From a virus (lineage: Duplodnaviria > Heunggongvirae > Uroviricota > Caudoviricetes): a stretch of DNA of 34,391 nucleotides. This document shows positions 9,401 to 34,391 of the stretch, piece after piece (within the stretch, counting starts at the first letter, position 1; each line of letters begins with the position of its first letter). The notes under the pieces were generated by a model, which saw only the letters and a program-made list of their open reading frames with translations, made no database searches and was not told where the DNA came from. The position numbers and the translations under genes are program-made. The stretch spans positions 1 through 34,391 of IMG/VR virus record IMGVR_UViG_2645727673_000011, one strand, 5' to 3'.

Positions 9401-10338
9401 TTTATGTTGAAATAGGTAATTTCGCCACGGGTGTAAATATCCAGTGGGATTATACCAGTATTGGTGATATTGAAGCATCGGAGGGCATGGGGGCGCTGAA
9501 ACTCTTCCTTTCGCGAGCGTTTAATCCTAACGGCAATATTCTCCCTGGCATTATTGGTGAGGCTAAAAAGTATGTCAGCGAAGAAGAACTTGAGCATCTT
9601 GACCAACTACTTAAGCGATTCTCATATAACCCGCAGACACGCTGGCAAATGAATCAGCGAAGTATGGGTTCGGTCCACGAGAAAGTGTTATCTGCCATGA
9701 ACAGTGCGATCGCAAACTCATCCGTATCTGAAGAAAAAGCTCTTGAGTGGGCCGACTCTTTTATCACGGAAGAAGTGGAAGAAGCCCGCGCTGGACAGAA
9801 TGGTGGGATAGACCTGCGCAAGGAACTTGCTGATATTTATCGCCTGACCGGCGGTAAAATTTCGACCTTATCAAAGGTGGTTCACCACCAGGGAAGGGCA
9901 TATGCAAATCTTAATGGTGTTGTTGCTGTCAATTTGAACGATGAAAATGCAAGTGCACTGTGGCACGAGCTGGGTCATCATCTTGAGTACAGTAACCCTG
10001 GTTTGTTAGAGAAAGCCCGGTCATTCCTGAAGGCCAATGTTGAAGGGGATAAGCCATCTTTCGTTAATATCGGTGGGCGTGGCAAGCCTGAATGGTGCTT
10101 CAGATCTCGATTGAGTAATATTTATATGGCGAAGGTATACCCGCCAGCCTCAGTAAGTAACACCGGGAAAATTCGGCAGAAATCACCGACTATTTCCAAA
10201 ACGTCAGCAACGGAAGTATTCTCTATGGCTCTTCAGTTGTATCATGACAAAGAGGCCGCTGCCGCATCACTGATGAATGGTGACGGATTGCTGGAACTGT
10301 TATTAGGTGTGGCAAAGGAGCTAAATAATGCGGATTAA
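6403..10338 (+). CDS. S: Tail fibre protein S: P1/Mu-like constant N-terminal part joined to a divergent C-terminal part
   Basis: ATG at 6403 (MNDVTVVTSVTYPSPESLALVADVQYHEPYL...) with AAGGA upstream; this is in frame with the longer track ORF that starts inside R. Contains the TGTPTAPTAAQGTNSTQIANTAFV motif twice and five copies of a ~40-aa fibre repeat (ATKLQTARTIGGVSFDGSANI). Ends NNAD* at 10338. Confidence 0.85.
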   Translation: MNDVTVVTSVTYPSPESLALVADVQYHEPYLSAALNRKFRGIVDPGFYAGFFPKPGGGMNLLITSVDGDKTAGAASVNIGEFYQVTIQQRKDISLALSAGKKYAIVLKGRYLLGEDSYQVNTASHIHAAEFVARTYTDSYQLGDGELLVCTVNIPAGVSAITKEMIDVSDRIDLTIGIEISDSVTSTRSDVAASSLAVKKAYDLAKSKYTAQDASTTQKGLVQLSSATNSDSETMAATPKAVKSVKELADTKAPIESPSLTGTPTAPTAAQGTNSTQIANTAFVKAAITALINGAPGTLDTLKEIAAAINNDPNFSTTINNALALKAPLASPALTGIPTAPTAAQGTNNTQIATTAYVRAAISALVGSSPEALDTLNELAAALGNDPNFATTMTNALAGKQPLDATLTALAGLATGANKLPYFTGTDTVSQTDLTSVGRDILAKTSTLAVIQYLGLREIGTSGEKIPLLSTANTWSSQQTFKGKTAFSAAATFSAGIAGAIEPEAIDGRTIDLNDLIIANTEAGSVKYYQCKTVAGGANITNKPDGVSGNFLVRVESIRKTTGSDYANMQTLINSDTKRIYVRFVVNGNWTAWSQVVVSGWGQDVSVKSLSAVALSGSLTGNASTATKLQTARTIGGVSFDGSANIDLPGVNKAGNQSTTGNAATATKLQTVRTIGGVSFDGSANIDLPGVNKAGNQSTTGNAATATKLQTARTINGVKFDGSANISIPTITSRGRVTALTDTTQGAATGLQMYEAYNNSYPTAYGNVLHMKGASAAGEGELLIGWSGTSGAHAPVFIRSRRDHTDAAWSAWAQVYTSRDSIPGVNATGNQNTTGNAATATKLQTARTIGGVSFDGTANINLPGVNVAGNQNTSGNAATATKLQTARTINGVSFDGSKNIELTPRSIGTINSTTMSFSGGAGWFKLATVTMPQASSVVYISLIGSSGYNVNSPMQAGISELVLRAGNGNPKGLTGALWRRTSVGFTNFAWVNTSGDTYDVYVEIGNFATGVNIQWDYTSIGDIEASEGMGALKLFLSRAFNPNGNILPGIIGEAKKYVSEEELEHLDQLLKRFSYNPQTRWQMNQRSMGSVHEKVLSAMNSAIANSSVSEEKALEWADSFITEEVEEARAGQNGGIDLRKELADIYRLTGGKISTLSKVVHHQGRAYANLNGVVAVNLNDENASALWHELGHHLEYSNPGLLEKARSFLKANVEGDKPSFVNIGGRGKPEWCFRSRLSNIYMAKVYPPASVSNTGKIRQKSPTISKTSATEVFSMALQLYHDKEAAAASLMNGDGLLELLLGVAKELNNAD
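7751..7776 (+). other. cix/gix/hix-like DNA-invertase crossover site at the constant/variable junction of S
   Basis: ttatccaataccttggtttaagagaa; its reverse complement TTCTCTTAAACCAAGGTATTGGATAA matches the Hin hixL site TTCTTGAAAACCAAGGTTTTTGATAA (recalled from memory) at 21 of 26 positions. It encodes the VIQYLGLRE junction. Confidence 0.5.
8281..8520 (+). repeat. Two tandem copies of a 120-bp in-frame repeat inside S (about 95% identical); a third diverged copy follows at 8521 and two more at about 8890-9120
   Basis: Direct comparison of 8281-8400 with 8401-8520 shows about 6 mismatches in 120 bp. Each unit encodes a 40-aa repeat ending TGNAATATK. Confidence 0.85.
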
Positions 10339-11360: not shown

Positions 11361-11541
11361 GAGGCTTCCAAGCAAATATCATGACAAGCATAAAGTGTTA
11401 AAGTAATGTTACGCATCTTAACAAAGTGACTCTTGATTAATTTTAATTCGCCCTATCTTGCTTGTCTAACCATCATTGCATATACAGAGGGCAAAGAATT
11501 ACACTTCATGTAATTTATTTCCCTTTAATTTCGTATTATCA

Positions 11542-13083: not shown

Positions 13084-13100
13084 AAAATGATTAGAGCAAT
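13084..13100 (-). promoter_or_regulatory. Candidate P1 C1 repressor operator upstream of ssb, in the ssb/lyz divergent intergenic region
   Basis: Minus-strand sequence ATTGCTCTAATCATTTT matches the 17-bp C1 operator consensus ATTGCTCTAATAAATTT (recalled from memory) at 15 of 17 positions. Confidence 0.4.
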
Positions 13101-13232
13101 AATGTATATCTTTGAAACGTAGCTAACAAGTGATTTGCATTATCCTGTGCCTTCTAAAGGGATCGAGTCAGTCGGTATTGGCTGTGAATGGGTGTTTGTC
13201 CTGGAGCGTAAAAATTCGCTTATGAGGTCTTT

Positions 13233-13790
13233 ATGAAGGGAAAAACAGCCGCAGGAGGCGGTGCAATTTGCGCTATCGCGGTGATGATTACCATCGTAAT
13301 GGGTAATGGCAATGTGCGAACCAACCAGGCGGGGCTTGAGCTGATTGGTAACGCTGAAGGTTGCCGACGTGATCCATACATGTGCCCGGCGGGGGTATGG
13401 ACTGACGGGATCGGTAATACACACGGGGTAACGCCGGGTGTGCGAAAAACCGACCAGCAAATCGCCGCTGATTGGGAAAAGAATATCCTGATCGCTGAAC
13501 GCTGTATTAATCAGCACTTCCGGGGCAAAGACATGCCCGATAATGCCTTTAGTGCAATGACAAGCGCGGCATTCAATATGGGATGCAATAGCTTACGGAC
13601 CTACTACAGCAAAGCGCGAGGCATGCGAGTCGAAACGTCCATCCACAAGTGGGCGCAGAAAGGGGAATGGGTGAATATGTGTAACCATCTCCCTGATTTT
13701 GTGAACAGTAACGGCGTGCCCCTGCGAGGTTTAAAGATTCGCCGTGAAAAAGAACGCCAGCTTTGCCTGACGGGACTGGTCAATGAATAA
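13233..13790 (+). CDS. lyz: SAR endolysin (T4-lysozyme family), P1 Lyz-like
   Basis: 185 aa, ATG at 13233 after GAGG. Gly/Ala-rich signal-anchor N-terminus (AAGGGAICAIAVMITIVMG) followed by the catalytic region NAEGCRRDPYMCPAGVWTDGIGNT. Confidence 0.9.
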   Translation: MKGKTAAGGGAICAIAVMITIVMGNGNVRTNQAGLELIGNAEGCRRDPYMCPAGVWTDGIGNTHGVTPGVRKTDQQIAADWEKNILIAERCINQHFRGKDMPDNAFSAMTSAAFNMGCNSLRTYYSKARGMRVETSIHKWAQKGEWVNMCNHLPDFVNSNGVPLRGLKIRREKERQLCLTGLVNE

Positions 13791-14037
13791 ACTCCGGCAG
13801 CTCCGCAGACTTTCGACAATGAAGTTATCGCTGGCAGCGATAGTTTTCGACTCGATTTTCATGGCGGTATATGTGCTTAATGAAACGTGGCCACTGGAAC
13901 CGCTATTGTATGCCGGGCTTCGGCTGTGCCTGACATTTTTGAGCATGGCCGCGAGATTGATGCAGCAGAAAGAAACCGCTTCAGATTGTCCACGCCGCGC
14001 GGTGCGCAAATATATGGCACGCAGGCGAAGTCGATAA
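13783..14037 (+). CDS. Small membrane protein coupled to lyz; possible lysis accessory protein
   Basis: ATG at 13783 overlaps the 3' end of lyz by 8 nt. The 84-aa product has hydrophobic segments (LSLAAIVFDSIFMAVYVL and LLYAGLRLCLTFLSMAA) and a basic C-terminus. Confidence 0.45.
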   Translation: MNKLRQLRRLSTMKLSLAAIVFDSIFMAVYVLNETWPLEPLLYAGLRLCLTFLSMAARLMQQKETASDCPRRAVRKYMARRRSR

Positions 14038-14048
14038 TAGTTAACGAG

Positions 14049-14078
14049 AACCCCGGCACTCGCCGGGGTTATTTTTGG
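14049..14078 (+). terminator. Intrinsic terminator between the lyz operon (+) and pro (-)
   Basis: aaccccggc-actc-gccggggtt forms a 9-bp GC-rich stem and is followed by aTTTTTgg. Confidence 0.6.
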
Positions 14079-14081
14079 TGG

Positions 14082-16812
<2,731 letters not shown>

Positions 16813-30955: not shown

Positions 30956-30993
30956 GGGGTCGTCTCAGAAAACGGAAAATAAAGCACGCTAAG
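30956..30993. repeat. 38-bp terminal inverted repeat of a Tn21-subgroup Tn3-family transposon (tnpA-proximal end)
   Basis: GGGGTCGTCTCAGAAAACGGAAAATAAAGCACGCTAAG; the tnpA stop codon lies inside it, as is usual for Tn3-family elements. Confidence 0.8.
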
Positions 30994-33955
30994 CCGGTTG
31001 CAGAGGCCGTAGCGGCCTGAACTTCCCCGCGCCGATCTTGGCGCTGCTGCGCCATAGGTAATCACCGGTCAGGTTGATGTGCTCCCAGCCGAGTGGCGAC
31101 AGGTACTGCAATAGCGAGTCATCGACGGCATGACCATTGCCGCGCAACGCATGCGCCGCACGCTCCAGGTAGACCGTGTTCCACAGCACGATGGCCGCCG
31201 TCACCAGGTTGAGGCCGCTGGCCCGGTAGCGCTGCTGCTCGAAACTGCGGTCACGGATTTCACCAAGGCGGTTGAAGAACACGGCACGGGCCAGCGCATT
31301 GCGCGCCTCGCCCTTGTTCAGCCCGGCATGCACGCGGCGGCGTAGCTCGACGCTTTGCAGCCAGTCGAGGATGAACAGCGTGCGCTCGATGCGGCCCAAC
31401 TCGCGCAGCGCGACGGCCAAGCCGTTCTGGCGCGGGTAGCTGCCGAGTTTCCTGAGCATCAGCGAGGCCGTCACCGTGCCCTGCTTGATCGAGGTGGCCA
31501 GCCGCAGGATTTCGTCCCAATGGGCGCGGACGTGCTTGATGTTGAGCGTGCCGCCGATCATCGGCTTGAGCGCGTCATAGGCGGCATCGCCCTTCGGGAT
31601 GTAGAGCTTGGTGTCGCCCAGGTCGCGGATGCGCGGCGCGAAGCGGAAGCCCAAGAGGTGCATCAGGGCGAAGACGTGATCGGTGAAGCCCGCCGTGTCG
31701 GTGTAGTGCTCCTCGATCCGCAGGTCGGATTCGTGGTACAGCAGGCCGTCGAGCACGTAGGTTGAGTCGCGCAGGCCGACATTGACCACCTTGGTGTGGA
31801 ATGGCGCGTATTGGTCGGAGATGTGGGTGTAGAAAGTCCGTCCTGGGCTGCTGCCATATTTTGGGTTGATGTGCCCCGTGCTCTTTGCCTTGCTAGCGGT
31901 TCGGAAATTCTGTCCGTCCGATGATGATGTGGTGCCATCGCCCCAGTGCCCGGCAAAGGGATGCCGAAACTGAGCGTTGACCAGTTCAGCCAACGCTGTC
32001 GAGTACGTTTCGTCGCGGGTATGCCAGGCTTGCAGCCAAGCGAGCTTCGCGTAGGTCGTGCCGGGGCAGGACTCGGCCATCTTGGTCAGGCCCAGGTTGA
32101 TCGCGTCGGCCAGGATCGTGGTCAACAACAGGTTCTTGTCCTTGGCCAGATCGCCCGATTTCAAGTGCGTGAAGTGCCGGGTGAAGCCCGTCCACTCATC
32201 GACTTCGAGCAGCAGTTCGGTGATCTTGACGTGCGGCAGGACCATGGCTGTCTGGTCTATCAGCGCCTGCGCGGTGTCGGGCACCGCCGCATCCAGCGGC
32301 GTGATCTTCAAGCCCGACTCGGTGATGATGGCATCCGGCAGGTCGTTGGCTGCCGCCATGCGGTTGACGGTGGCAAGTTGTGCTTCCAGCAGCGTCAGCC
32401 GCTCATGCAGATATTGTTCGCAGTCGGTGGCCACGGCCAGCGGCAATTCGCTGGACTGCTTGAGGCTGGTGAACTTCTCGGGCGGTACCAGGTAGTCCTC
32501 GAAGTCCTTGAACTGGCGTGAACCCTGCACCCAGATGTCGCCCGAGCGCAGGGAGTTCTTCAACTCGGACAGCGCGCACAGTTCGTAGTAGCGCCGGTCG
32601 ATGCCGGCGTCGGTCATCACCAGTTTCTGCCAGCGCGGCTTGATGAAGCCGGTCGGTGCATCGGCTGGCAGCTTGCGGGCGTTGTCGGTGTTCATGCCGC
32701 GCAGCACCTCAATGGCATCAAGCACGTTTTTGGCGGCGGGCGCGGCCCGCAGCTTGAGCACGGCAAGGAATTCCGGTGCATAGCGGCGCAGGGTGGCGTA
32801 GCTCTCGCCGATGCGATGCAGGAAATCGAAGTCATCGGGTTGCGCGAGCTTCTGCGCCTCGGTGACGCTCTCGGCAAAGGAATCCCAGGACATGACGGCC
32901 TCGATGGCGGCAAACGCATCGCGGCCTGATTGCTTGGCGTCGATCAGCGCCTGACCGATGCGCCCGTACAGACGTACCTTGGCGTTGATGGCCTTGCCTG
33001 ACGCCTGGAACTGCTGCTGATGCTTATTCTTGGCAGCGTTAAACAGCTTACCCAGGATGCGGTCGTGCAGGTCGATGATTTCGTCGGTGACGGTGGCCAT
33101 GCCCTCGGTGGCCAGCGCCACGAGAGTGGCGTAGCGCCGTTGCGGCTCGAATTTGGCCAGGTCGGCGGGTGTCATCTGGCCGCCCTCGCGGGCAATCTTG
33201 AGCAGGCGGTTCTGGTGAACCAGCCGCTCGATGCCGGTAGGCAGATCGAGTGCCTGCCATGCCTTGAGGCGTTCGATGTGTTCCAGCATATGCCGCGAAT
33301 TTGGCTTGGCCGGAGACTGGCGCAACCAAGCCAACCAGGTCGTCTTGCCGTTGTCCCGGCGCTTGAGCAGATCGTCGAGGCGGCGGCGATGCGCGTCCGC
33401 CAGTGGTTCGGCCAAGGCGTCGTAGATGCGCCGGTTAGCACGGGTGATCGCCTCGGCACTCGCCCGCTCGACGGCGTTGAGGGCGGGCAGAATGACCGAC
33501 TGCCGCCGCAGGTGCCCGATCAAGGCGCTGGCCAGCACGATGCCTTTGTCGGTTTGCATCGCCAGCTCGGTCAGCATCTGGACGGCCTGCCGGTAATGGC
33601 TCATGGTGAAGGGCCGGAAACCGAACACGGTTTGCAGCTCGCTCAGGTGCTCGCGCCGGGTCTGCTCCCGCTGGCCGTACTCGTTCCAGCTTTCGACGCC
33701 GACCTTGAGCTGGTCGGCGACCAGCTTCAACAAGGGCGGGAACGGTAGTTCATCGACGCCCAGGATGACGCCGGGAAAGCGCAGGTAACAGAGCTGCACC
33801 GCGAAGCCCAGCCGATTGGCTGGCCCGCGCCGCTGTCGGATGATCGAGAGGTCGGTATCGTTGAATGTGTAATGTCGGATCAGGTCGTCCTTGGAGTCCG
33901 GCAACGCCAGCAGGCTTTCCCGCTCGGCGGCGGACAGGATGGAACGACGTGGCAT
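30989..33955 (-). CDS. tnpA: Tn3-family transposase TnpA
   Basis: 988-aa ORF ([31 protein letters not shown]...), typical of Tn21/Tn1721-type transposases. Coordinates taken from the ORF track. Confidence 0.9.
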
Positions 33956-33957
33956 AT

Positions 33958-34391
33958 TTACTGATCCGTTCTCAAGTATTGATACAGGGTTTCGCGACTG
34001 ATTCCGAATTCACGAGCAAGCTTGGTCTTTTGCTCGCCAGCCTCGACACGTTGGCGCAGTTCGGCAATACGCTCAGACGACAGGGATTTCTTCCTGCCAC
34101 GGTAAGCCCCGCGTTGCTTGGCGAGCGCAATACCCTCGCGCTGACGCTCGCGGATCAGGGCGCGCTCGAACTCGGCGAACGCGCCCATCACCGAGAGCAT
34201 CAGGTTCGCCATCGGAGAGTCTTCGCCAGTAAAACTGAGGTGTTCCTTGACGAATTCGATATGCACGCCGCGTTGTGTCAGCGTTTGCACGATCCGGCGC
34301 AAATCATCGAGATTGCGCGCCAGGCGATCCATGCTATGCACCACCACGGTGTCGCCGGTGCGGGCGAAGCTTATCAGCGCTTCCAGTGGCA
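33958..34391 (-). CDS. tnpR: Serine recombinase/resolvase TnpR, 3' part; N-terminus lies beyond the window end
   Basis: C-terminal resolvase sequence with a helix-turn-helix ([38 protein letters not shown]). The reading frame stays open to the last base of the window. Confidence 0.85.

Follow-up and report, generated by a model that had tools for sequence, protein, structure and literature searches.

The 84-codon reading frame that overlaps the 3' end of lyz is, by its sequence, the lydD gene of phage P1. With high confidence, we read it as the gene that closes the late lysis operon of P1 and its product as a two-helix inner-membrane pinholin, the partner of the SAR endolysin Lyz. Throughout the text, "the window" denotes the whole stretch of viral DNA that was analyzed, 34,391 nt in length, and the features discussed are collected in Table 1. 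The gene is already known, as it was annotated in P1 in 2004 and its product was recognized as a pinholin by experiment in 2022. The name lydD reportedly stems from the annotation of the P1 genome by Łobocka et al. in 2004. The observation made in the window is therefore confirmed, but matters little, because the gene has already been named and characterized. A preliminary description had put the frame forward as an unrecognized substitute for the holin LydA, and this proposal falls away: lydD is found, with its name and annotation, both in P1 itself and in each P1-like genome examined. The same description was exact in the limits, length and strand of the frame, and it correctly placed the start 8 nt before the lyz stop and noticed hydrophobic segments, of which hydropathy analysis resolves two.

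Table 1. Positions of the features discussed, in window coordinates or, for segments of LydD, in residues of the protein.
Feature	Position	Strand	Details
Chimeric ORF	6316..10338		1340 aa; residues 1-1048 tail fiber S, residues 1049-1340 equal to DdrB 704-995
LPlyz, late promoter of lyz-lydD	13128..13146	+	-22 and -10 boxes; position homologous to LPlyz as annotated in P1 AF234172
lyz	13233..13790	+	SAR endolysin, 185 aa; 185/185 identical to P1 Lyz; TAA at 13788-13790
lyz/lydD overlap	13783-13790		8 nt, ATGAATAA
lydD	13783..14037	+	probable pinholin gene; ATG at 13783, stop ends at 14037; 84 aa; translation MNKLRQLRRLSTMKLSLAAIVFDSIFMAVYVLNETWPLEPLLYAGLRLCLTFLSMAARLMQQKETASDCPRRAVRKYMARRRSR
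lydE reading frame	13887..14102	+	71 aa, GTG start; labeled "putative antiholin" in P1; out of frame over the 3' part of lydD
Intrinsic terminator	14049..14076	+	9-bp G+C-rich stem, then T run; between lydD and convergent pro
LydD N-terminus	residues 1-14		basic, 5 K/R
LydD TMD1 (predicted)	residues about 15-32		LSLAAIVFDSIFMAVYVL; Kyte-Doolittle 19-mer maximum 1.89; contains Asp23
LydD loop	residues 33-40		NETWPLEP; polar, acidic, charge -2
LydD TMD2 (predicted)	residues about 41-59		LLYAGLRLCLTFLSMAARL; Kyte-Doolittle maximum 1.42; contains Arg47
LydD C-terminal tail	residues 60-84		very basic, 9 K/R and 2 D/E

The protein encoded in the window is identical to P1 LydD (AAQ13988.1 / YP_006483.1) at 83 of 84 residues. 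The sole change, the conservative R83S, affects the penultimate residue (RRRSR here, RRRRR in P1), and the RRRSR allele is carried by 4 of 80 related loci, the window included. In profile searches, PHROG 21930 "holin" is matched along all 84 residues (E 4e-58), a Pfam search yields only DUF7940, whose 22.8 bits fall short of the 27-bit cut-off, and an NCBIfam search returns no match for LydD. A megablast search of positions 13100-14200 against a phage collection retrieves 19 records, all of them P1-like (P1, P7, RCS47, SJ46, JL22 and phi456 among others), with 97.5-98.5% identity and the query covered essentially in full. Many of these records annotate lydD or a holin, and the P1 reference records label the homologous ORF "lydD, LydD, putative holin." The conservation downstream of lyz in P1-like genomes, which had been proposed as a check, is borne out by the 19 phage records and by the related loci, as the 8-nt overlap between lyz and lydD is present in 80 of 80. 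A non-lytic role already established for a conserved P1 counterpart would have counted against the reading as a lysis partner, but the role known for P1 LydD is lytic (PMC9025707).

The upstream partner is readily recognized as an endolysin, and P1 Lyz, to which it is identical, is the prototype of the SAR endolysins. Lyz matches Pfam Phage_lysozyme at E 2e-22 and also PHROG 7 endolysin, and its residues 5-24 constitute a weakly hydrophobic, Gly/Ala-rich N-terminal segment with a Kyte-Doolittle mean of about 2.06. The LPlyz stretch is identical between the window and P1, and its function as a promoter is taken from the P1 annotation. At the other end, a terminator scan detects a strong intrinsic terminator, AACCCCGGC-ACTC-GCCGGGGTT followed by ATTTTT, starting 12 nt past the lydD stop. 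The stem of this terminator is kept in P1, where differences are confined to the central bases of the hairpin, and the motif is found in 73 of the 80 related loci. According to the P1 annotation, the pro gene lies downstream and is convergent with lyz-lydD. Since the terminator follows directly upon lydD, the operon consists of LPlyz, lyz, lydD and the terminator, with lydD as its second and last gene. As is expected of a pinholin gene, lydD thus adjoins the gene of a SAR endolysin, with which it shares a late promoter and a terminator.

In order to assess selection on the frame, the lyz-lydD-lydE region was compared without gaps among 80 sequences including the window, which represent 64 haplotypes and derive from IMG/VR loci encoding LydD relatives. 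Codons 1-82 of lydD display 33 synonymous, 3 non-synonymous and 0 nonsense changes, and 25 of 33 variable sites are located at codon position 3; the corresponding counts for the non-overlapping part of lyz are 74, 29 and 0. As the changes in lydD are nearly all synonymous, this pattern places lydD under strong purifying selection and shows it to be a real, selected coding gene.

LydD has the general layout of a small two-helix membrane protein. Its best 19-residue hydrophobic windows start at residue 15 and residue 41, and they are separated by a short polar loop and flanked by basic termini (Table 1). An AlphaFold2 model places helices at residues 3-32, 40-66 and 68-82. This model was built on a 5-sequence alignment and is of low confidence (mean pLDDT 65, pTM 0.35), and it is used here only as support for the helix-loop-helix layout. 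The small size, the two predicted TMDs and the charged C-terminus, which are characteristics of pinholins, are accordingly read from hydropathy and a low-confidence model. The positive-inside rule is an established guide for orienting membrane helices. In combination with the basic N- and C-termini it suggests a two-pass topology with both ends in the cytoplasm, so that LydD would adopt the N-in/C-in layout of class II holins, with a periplasmic loop.

The function of LydD has been addressed in P1 by Bednarek et al. (2022; Int J Mol Sci 23:4231, PMC9025707), who studied lydD itself and conclude that its product is a pinholin. A plasmid carrying lyz and lydD (with or without lydE) caused faster and fuller lysis than lyz alone, and co-expression of lydD with the canonical endolysin R of phage lambda led to no lysis (PMC9025707). 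Plaques were formed by P1 lydA and P1 lydA lydC mutants, but not by P1 lydA lydD, and lydD mutants lysed later, not earlier (PMC9025707). Upon loss of lydD, the morphology of lysing cells shifted from the SAR-endolysin/pinholin pattern to the canonical one (PMC9025707). LydA serves as the main holin of P1 in liquid E. coli culture, with LydC and LydD in accessory roles; there, LydD alone, in P1 lydA lydC, gave no lysis within the experiment, and the contribution of LydD therefore depends on conditions (PMC9025707). The assignment of the window protein to the pinholin class would hence be carried over from the endolysin specificity and lysis morphology of the P1 protein, from which it differs at one residue of 84.

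Taken together with the layout of the operon, these data are consistent with the following course of events. Lyz and LydD would be made together late in infection, probably with translational coupling via the ATGAATAA overlap. LydD would then build up harmlessly in the inner membrane as a two-pass protein. At a set time it would form many small pores, probably too small to let a soluble canonical endolysin pass, and the proton-motive force would collapse. Depolarization is expected to free the membrane-tethered SAR domain of Lyz, which may then refold into an active muramidase and degrade the wall.

Other readings of the frame have to be weighed against this one. The preliminary description had left the choice between a pinholin-type and a spanin-type lysis partner, and the two halves of this proposal fare differently: the pinholin is right, as experiments on P1 LydD show (PMC9025707), and the spanin is wrong. 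A spanin component, whether an i-spanin, an o-spanin or a unimolecular one, would disrupt the outer membrane after degradation of the wall by Lyz. Spanin genes are often found 3' of endolysin genes, which is the position of lydD, and the embedded, overlapping pair lydD/lydE resembles Rz/Rz1. However, merely 8 residues separate the LydD helices, which leaves no periplasm-spanning domain, and a direct reading of the LydD sequence reveals no signal-peptidase II lipobox, as its only Cys in a hydrophobic context (LRLC49) has Leu at -1. Furthermore, no selection acts on the embedded lydE frame, which carries no lipoprotein signal. With Lyz as its only partner, LydD already speeds lysis in shaken cultures, which do not require spanins (PMC9025707). 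The predicted spanins of P1 are ppfA and mlp, encoded in another operon (PMC9025707). Topology, the missing lipobox and the presence of spanin candidates elsewhere in P1 rule out a spanin identity for LydD, whose probability we consider negligible. No more credit can be given to the notion of a chance reading frame or a pseudogene devoid of a product. The small size of the frame and its failure to match any curated Pfam or NCBIfam family would fit such a notion. It is refuted, however, by the selection pattern, in which the 80 loci show 33 synonymous and 3 non-synonymous changes and keep codons 1-82 free of nonsense changes, and by the deletion phenotypes in P1 (PMC9025707). The retention of the same length and position after lyz at 75-85% identity in distant elements also speaks against it.

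A somewhat more serious, though still very improbable, proposal is that LydD mainly regulates the timing of lysis, as an antiholin, a pinholin antagonist or a modulator of LydA. In one variant, a dual start at Met1 and Met13 would give rise to a long charged form that inhibits and a short form that makes pores. The 12-14 residues ahead of TMD1 do hold 4-5 positive charges, and the addition of two positive charges is known to turn S21 68 into an antagonist (PMC9025707). Met13-Lys14 lies right where TMD1 begins and does not vary down to 75% identity, and the absence of lysis in liquid E. coli culture of P1 lydA lydC, where LydD is the sole holin, would also agree with a regulatory role (PMC9025707). 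The net phenotype of LydD is nevertheless pro-lytic, as lyz with lydD lyses faster, lydD mutants lyse later and LydD alone supports plaques (PMC9025707). The dual start is further disfavored by the sequence before the Met13 codon at 13819, GCAGACTTTCGACAATG, which shows no Shine-Dalgarno-like motif, and the conservation of Met13 weighs little given that almost the whole of LydD is invariant. In view of the highly basic N-terminus and the invariant Met13, regulation of this kind may still act on top of pore formation. The pinholin remains our preferred reading of LydD.

The lydE frame, which P1 reference records still label as "putative antiholin," is most likely not protein-coding but an annotation artefact. 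Within the 142-nt overlap of lydD and lydE, the changes amount to 23 synonymous, 1 non-synonymous and 0 nonsense when read in the lydD frame, as opposed to 1 synonymous, 22 non-synonymous and 1 nonsense in the lydE frame. Just 58 of the 80 loci keep the lydE frame open over 70 codons or more; it is interrupted by stops in Salmonella and Klebsiella relatives, and the operon terminator falls within it. The substitution pattern, the internal terminator and the loss of the frame in relatives together lead to the view that lydE is not a gene. Searches of its translation against PHROG and NCBIfam gave no match, no lipoprotein signal was found in the frame, and its removal left lysis unchanged in the work on P1 (PMC9025707). 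An antiholin partner encoded by lydE is ruled out by the substitution pattern, the internal terminator, the broken frame, the lack of a family match and the null phenotype, and this evidence could justify dropping the annotation.

Beyond the close relatives of P1, the association of lydD with an endolysin gene persists. A homologue search over 5.8 billion proteins recovers 8 clusters, all from P1-like elements of Enterobacteriaceae. Four of them contain full-length 84-aa proteins with 75-85% identity to LydD, three further clusters are near-identical over only about 70% of the LydD query and differ in length, and the remaining one (P0008) is a frameshift fusion of LydD and LydE. Met13, Asp23, Arg47 and most of both helices are invariant in LydD relatives down to 75% identity. 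In Salmonella and Klebsiella, on contigs about 90 kb long, the lydD homologue is located directly 3' of a Phage_lysozyme gene, with an overlap of 4 or 8 nt, and is followed by ProQ-like and RepL genes instead of pro. The pair is kept despite these different downstream genes, and lyz-lydD is accordingly the conserved unit.

The surroundings of the operon differ from those in P1. The preliminary description had noted the absence of the darA/lyd operon from its usual place, and this stands: in tblastn searches, P1 LydA, LydB, LydC, Hdf, DarA and DdrA find no match in the window, and P1 DdrB matches it just over residues 704-995, at 9460..10335. In place of the lyd/dar region, the sequences of tail fiber S and the 3' third of ddrB are joined in frame at 9459/9460 with a 2-nt TA overlap, which gives rise to the chimeric ORF of Table 1. 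Compared with P1, the window is devoid of distal Sv, U, U', Sv', cin, lydC, lydA, lydB, hdf, darA, ddrA and the first 703 codons of ddrB. In plasmid pYLMB49b, a normal relative, the tail-fiber ORF continues for more than 430 codons further. The 9459/9460 junction is spanned by none of the records with a match to one side or the other, which comprise 743 from plasmids, 29 from phages and 631 from complete E. coli genomes. Likewise, IMG/VR, GTDB genomes and JGI metagenomes contain no exact copy of a 30-mer that crosses the junction. The junction could stem from a true deletion, in a prophage that is defective, or from chimeric assembly. With a true deletion, the prophage would probably be defective, because it has no complete tail fiber.

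If the junction is genuine and no lydA is present elsewhere in the genome, LydD would be the only holin of the element. We think it unlikely that the window derives from such a natural P1-like element with LydD as its sole holin. Should it be true, the element would carry a minimal two-gene SAR-endolysin/pinholin cassette without LydA, LydC and the antiholin LydB, and would mirror in nature the lydA lydC mutant made in the laboratory. To judge by that mutant, a phage in the sole-holin state forms plaques but does not lyse E. coli in liquid culture (PMC9025707).

Among known systems, the closest counterparts are LydD of P1 and P7, where the same 84-aa gene is found with the same overlap with lyz, LPlyz upstream, and the terminator and convergent pro downstream. 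Apart from R83S, the difference from P1 lies outside the operon, as the window is without the holin genes lydA and lydC and the antiholin gene lydB at their normal position. LydA and LydC, the class II holins encoded in or beside the dar operon of P1, resemble LydD in their small size, two TMDs, basic C-termini and cooperation with Lyz. Their sequences are nevertheless unrelated to LydD, they belong to a different operon and, unlike LydD, they behave as canonical large-hole holins that also work with lambda R (PMC9025707). Weak similarity is confined to two families, Pfam DUF7940 (LydD residues 5-62, E 1.4e-4) and PHROG 1356, a holin family (residues 5-74, E 0.01). In both cases the match covers the two-helix core but does not reach any curated threshold, and these families may at most be distantly related to LydD.

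The prototype pinholin is S21 68 of the lambdoid phage 21, whose partner is the SAR endolysin R21. Within phage 21, S21 precedes R21. LydD has the reverse gene order, in which the endolysin is followed by the pinholin. Like LydD, S21 68 is small, has two TMDs and a basic C-terminus and is encoded beside a SAR endolysin, and both S21 68 and P1 LydD permit lysis with a SAR endolysin and none with a canonical one (PMC9025707). Apart from the sub-threshold DUF7940 match, no Pfam or NCBIfam holin family is matched by LydD at E 0.1 or better, which sets it apart from an S21-type family. Further differences concern the helices and the N-terminus. The N-terminus of LydD is long and highly basic, with 4-5 charges as opposed to 1 in S21 68; in the P1 work the N-terminal region is described as 12 aa with four positive charges (PMC9025707). 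In contrast to S21 68, TMD2 of LydD lacks a glycine zipper (PMC9025707), and LydD has an invariant Asp23 in TMD1 and an invariant Arg47 in TMD2. Given the basic N-terminus and the lack of a glycine zipper, LydD probably forms pores by a pathway that differs from that of S21, and it is unlikely that the S21 pathway, in which TMD1 leaves the membrane, applies unchanged to LydD. Because Met13, Asp23 and Arg47 are invariant and the N-terminus is highly basic, we leave room for a pathway that might involve, for example, an intramembrane Asp-Arg pair or a dual-start holin/antiholin pair, in place of the route followed by S21 68.

The open reading frame lydE, which overlaps the pinholin gene lydD, behaves unlike a protein-coding gene. 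Within the overlap, changes read in the lydE frame comprise one synonymous substitution against 22 non-synonymous ones and one nonsense change, and the operon terminator is itself located within lydE. Of the 80 IMG/VR loci that encode LydD relatives (the window included), only 58 keep the lydE frame open; it is broken in the Salmonella and Klebsiella relatives, and no family match was found for its product. A separate observation concerns P0008, an 85-aa protein from a Logan assembly, which follows LydD over residues 1-52 and then switches to the lydE frame, owing either to a frameshift in nature or to a sequencing error.

Within LydD, Asp23 and Arg47 are unchanged in relatives down to 75% identity. 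Since both residues are invariant and lie in the middle of the first and the second hydrophobic segment (TMD1 and TMD2), respectively, the alignment suggests a possible intramembrane ion pair between them. The same invariance is seen for Met13-Lys14 at the start of TMD1, which leaves open that Met13 could serve as a second start codon. Neither point was found in the consulted parts of the paper on the P1 lysis genes (Bednarek et al., 2022; PMC9025707).

Features of the window discussed here, with coordinates and strand
Feature	Position	Strand	Remark
S-DdrB chimeric ORF, 1340 aa	6316..10338	+	junction 9459/9460
lydE	13887..14102	+	"putative antiholin" in the P1 reference genome annotation
Tn3-family transposase and resolvase ORF	30989..34347	-	adjoin the ref gene

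The window also carries a chimeric ORF whose residues 1-1048 are tail-fibre protein S, joined in frame to DdrB residues 704-995, the last third of that protein, with a 2-nt microhomology (TA) at the joint. Relative to P1, approximately 9-10 kb are absent at this junction: distal Sv, U, the remainder of the invertible C segment, cin, lydC, lydA, lydB, hdf, darA, ddrA and codons 1-703 of ddrB. None of the sequences searched contains this junction, whether from phages, plasmids, E. coli genomes, IMG/VR, GTDB or JGI metagenomes. The joint represents an assembly chimera or else a unique deletion carried by a defective prophage.

P1 carries an IS1 copy between isaA and isaB (compared over P1 22626-23393). 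The window lacks it, and blastn segments show the flanks joined directly at window positions 11485..11493. In more distant P1-like contigs from Salmonella and Klebsiella (L085-L089), convergent ProQ-like and RepL genes, rather than pro and prt, come after the lyz-lydD pair; the lysis cassette thus occupies a different genomic neighbourhood there. P1 similarity of the window ends at about 30957. The transposase (988 aa) next to ref, which encodes a RecA-dependent nuclease, matches DDE_Tnp_Tn3, and the resolvase ORF, whose listed start falls just inside the window end, matches the 145-position Resolvase N-terminal model over positions 68-144 only. This Tn3-family insertion resembles those of resistance-carrying P1-like plasmids such as SJ46.
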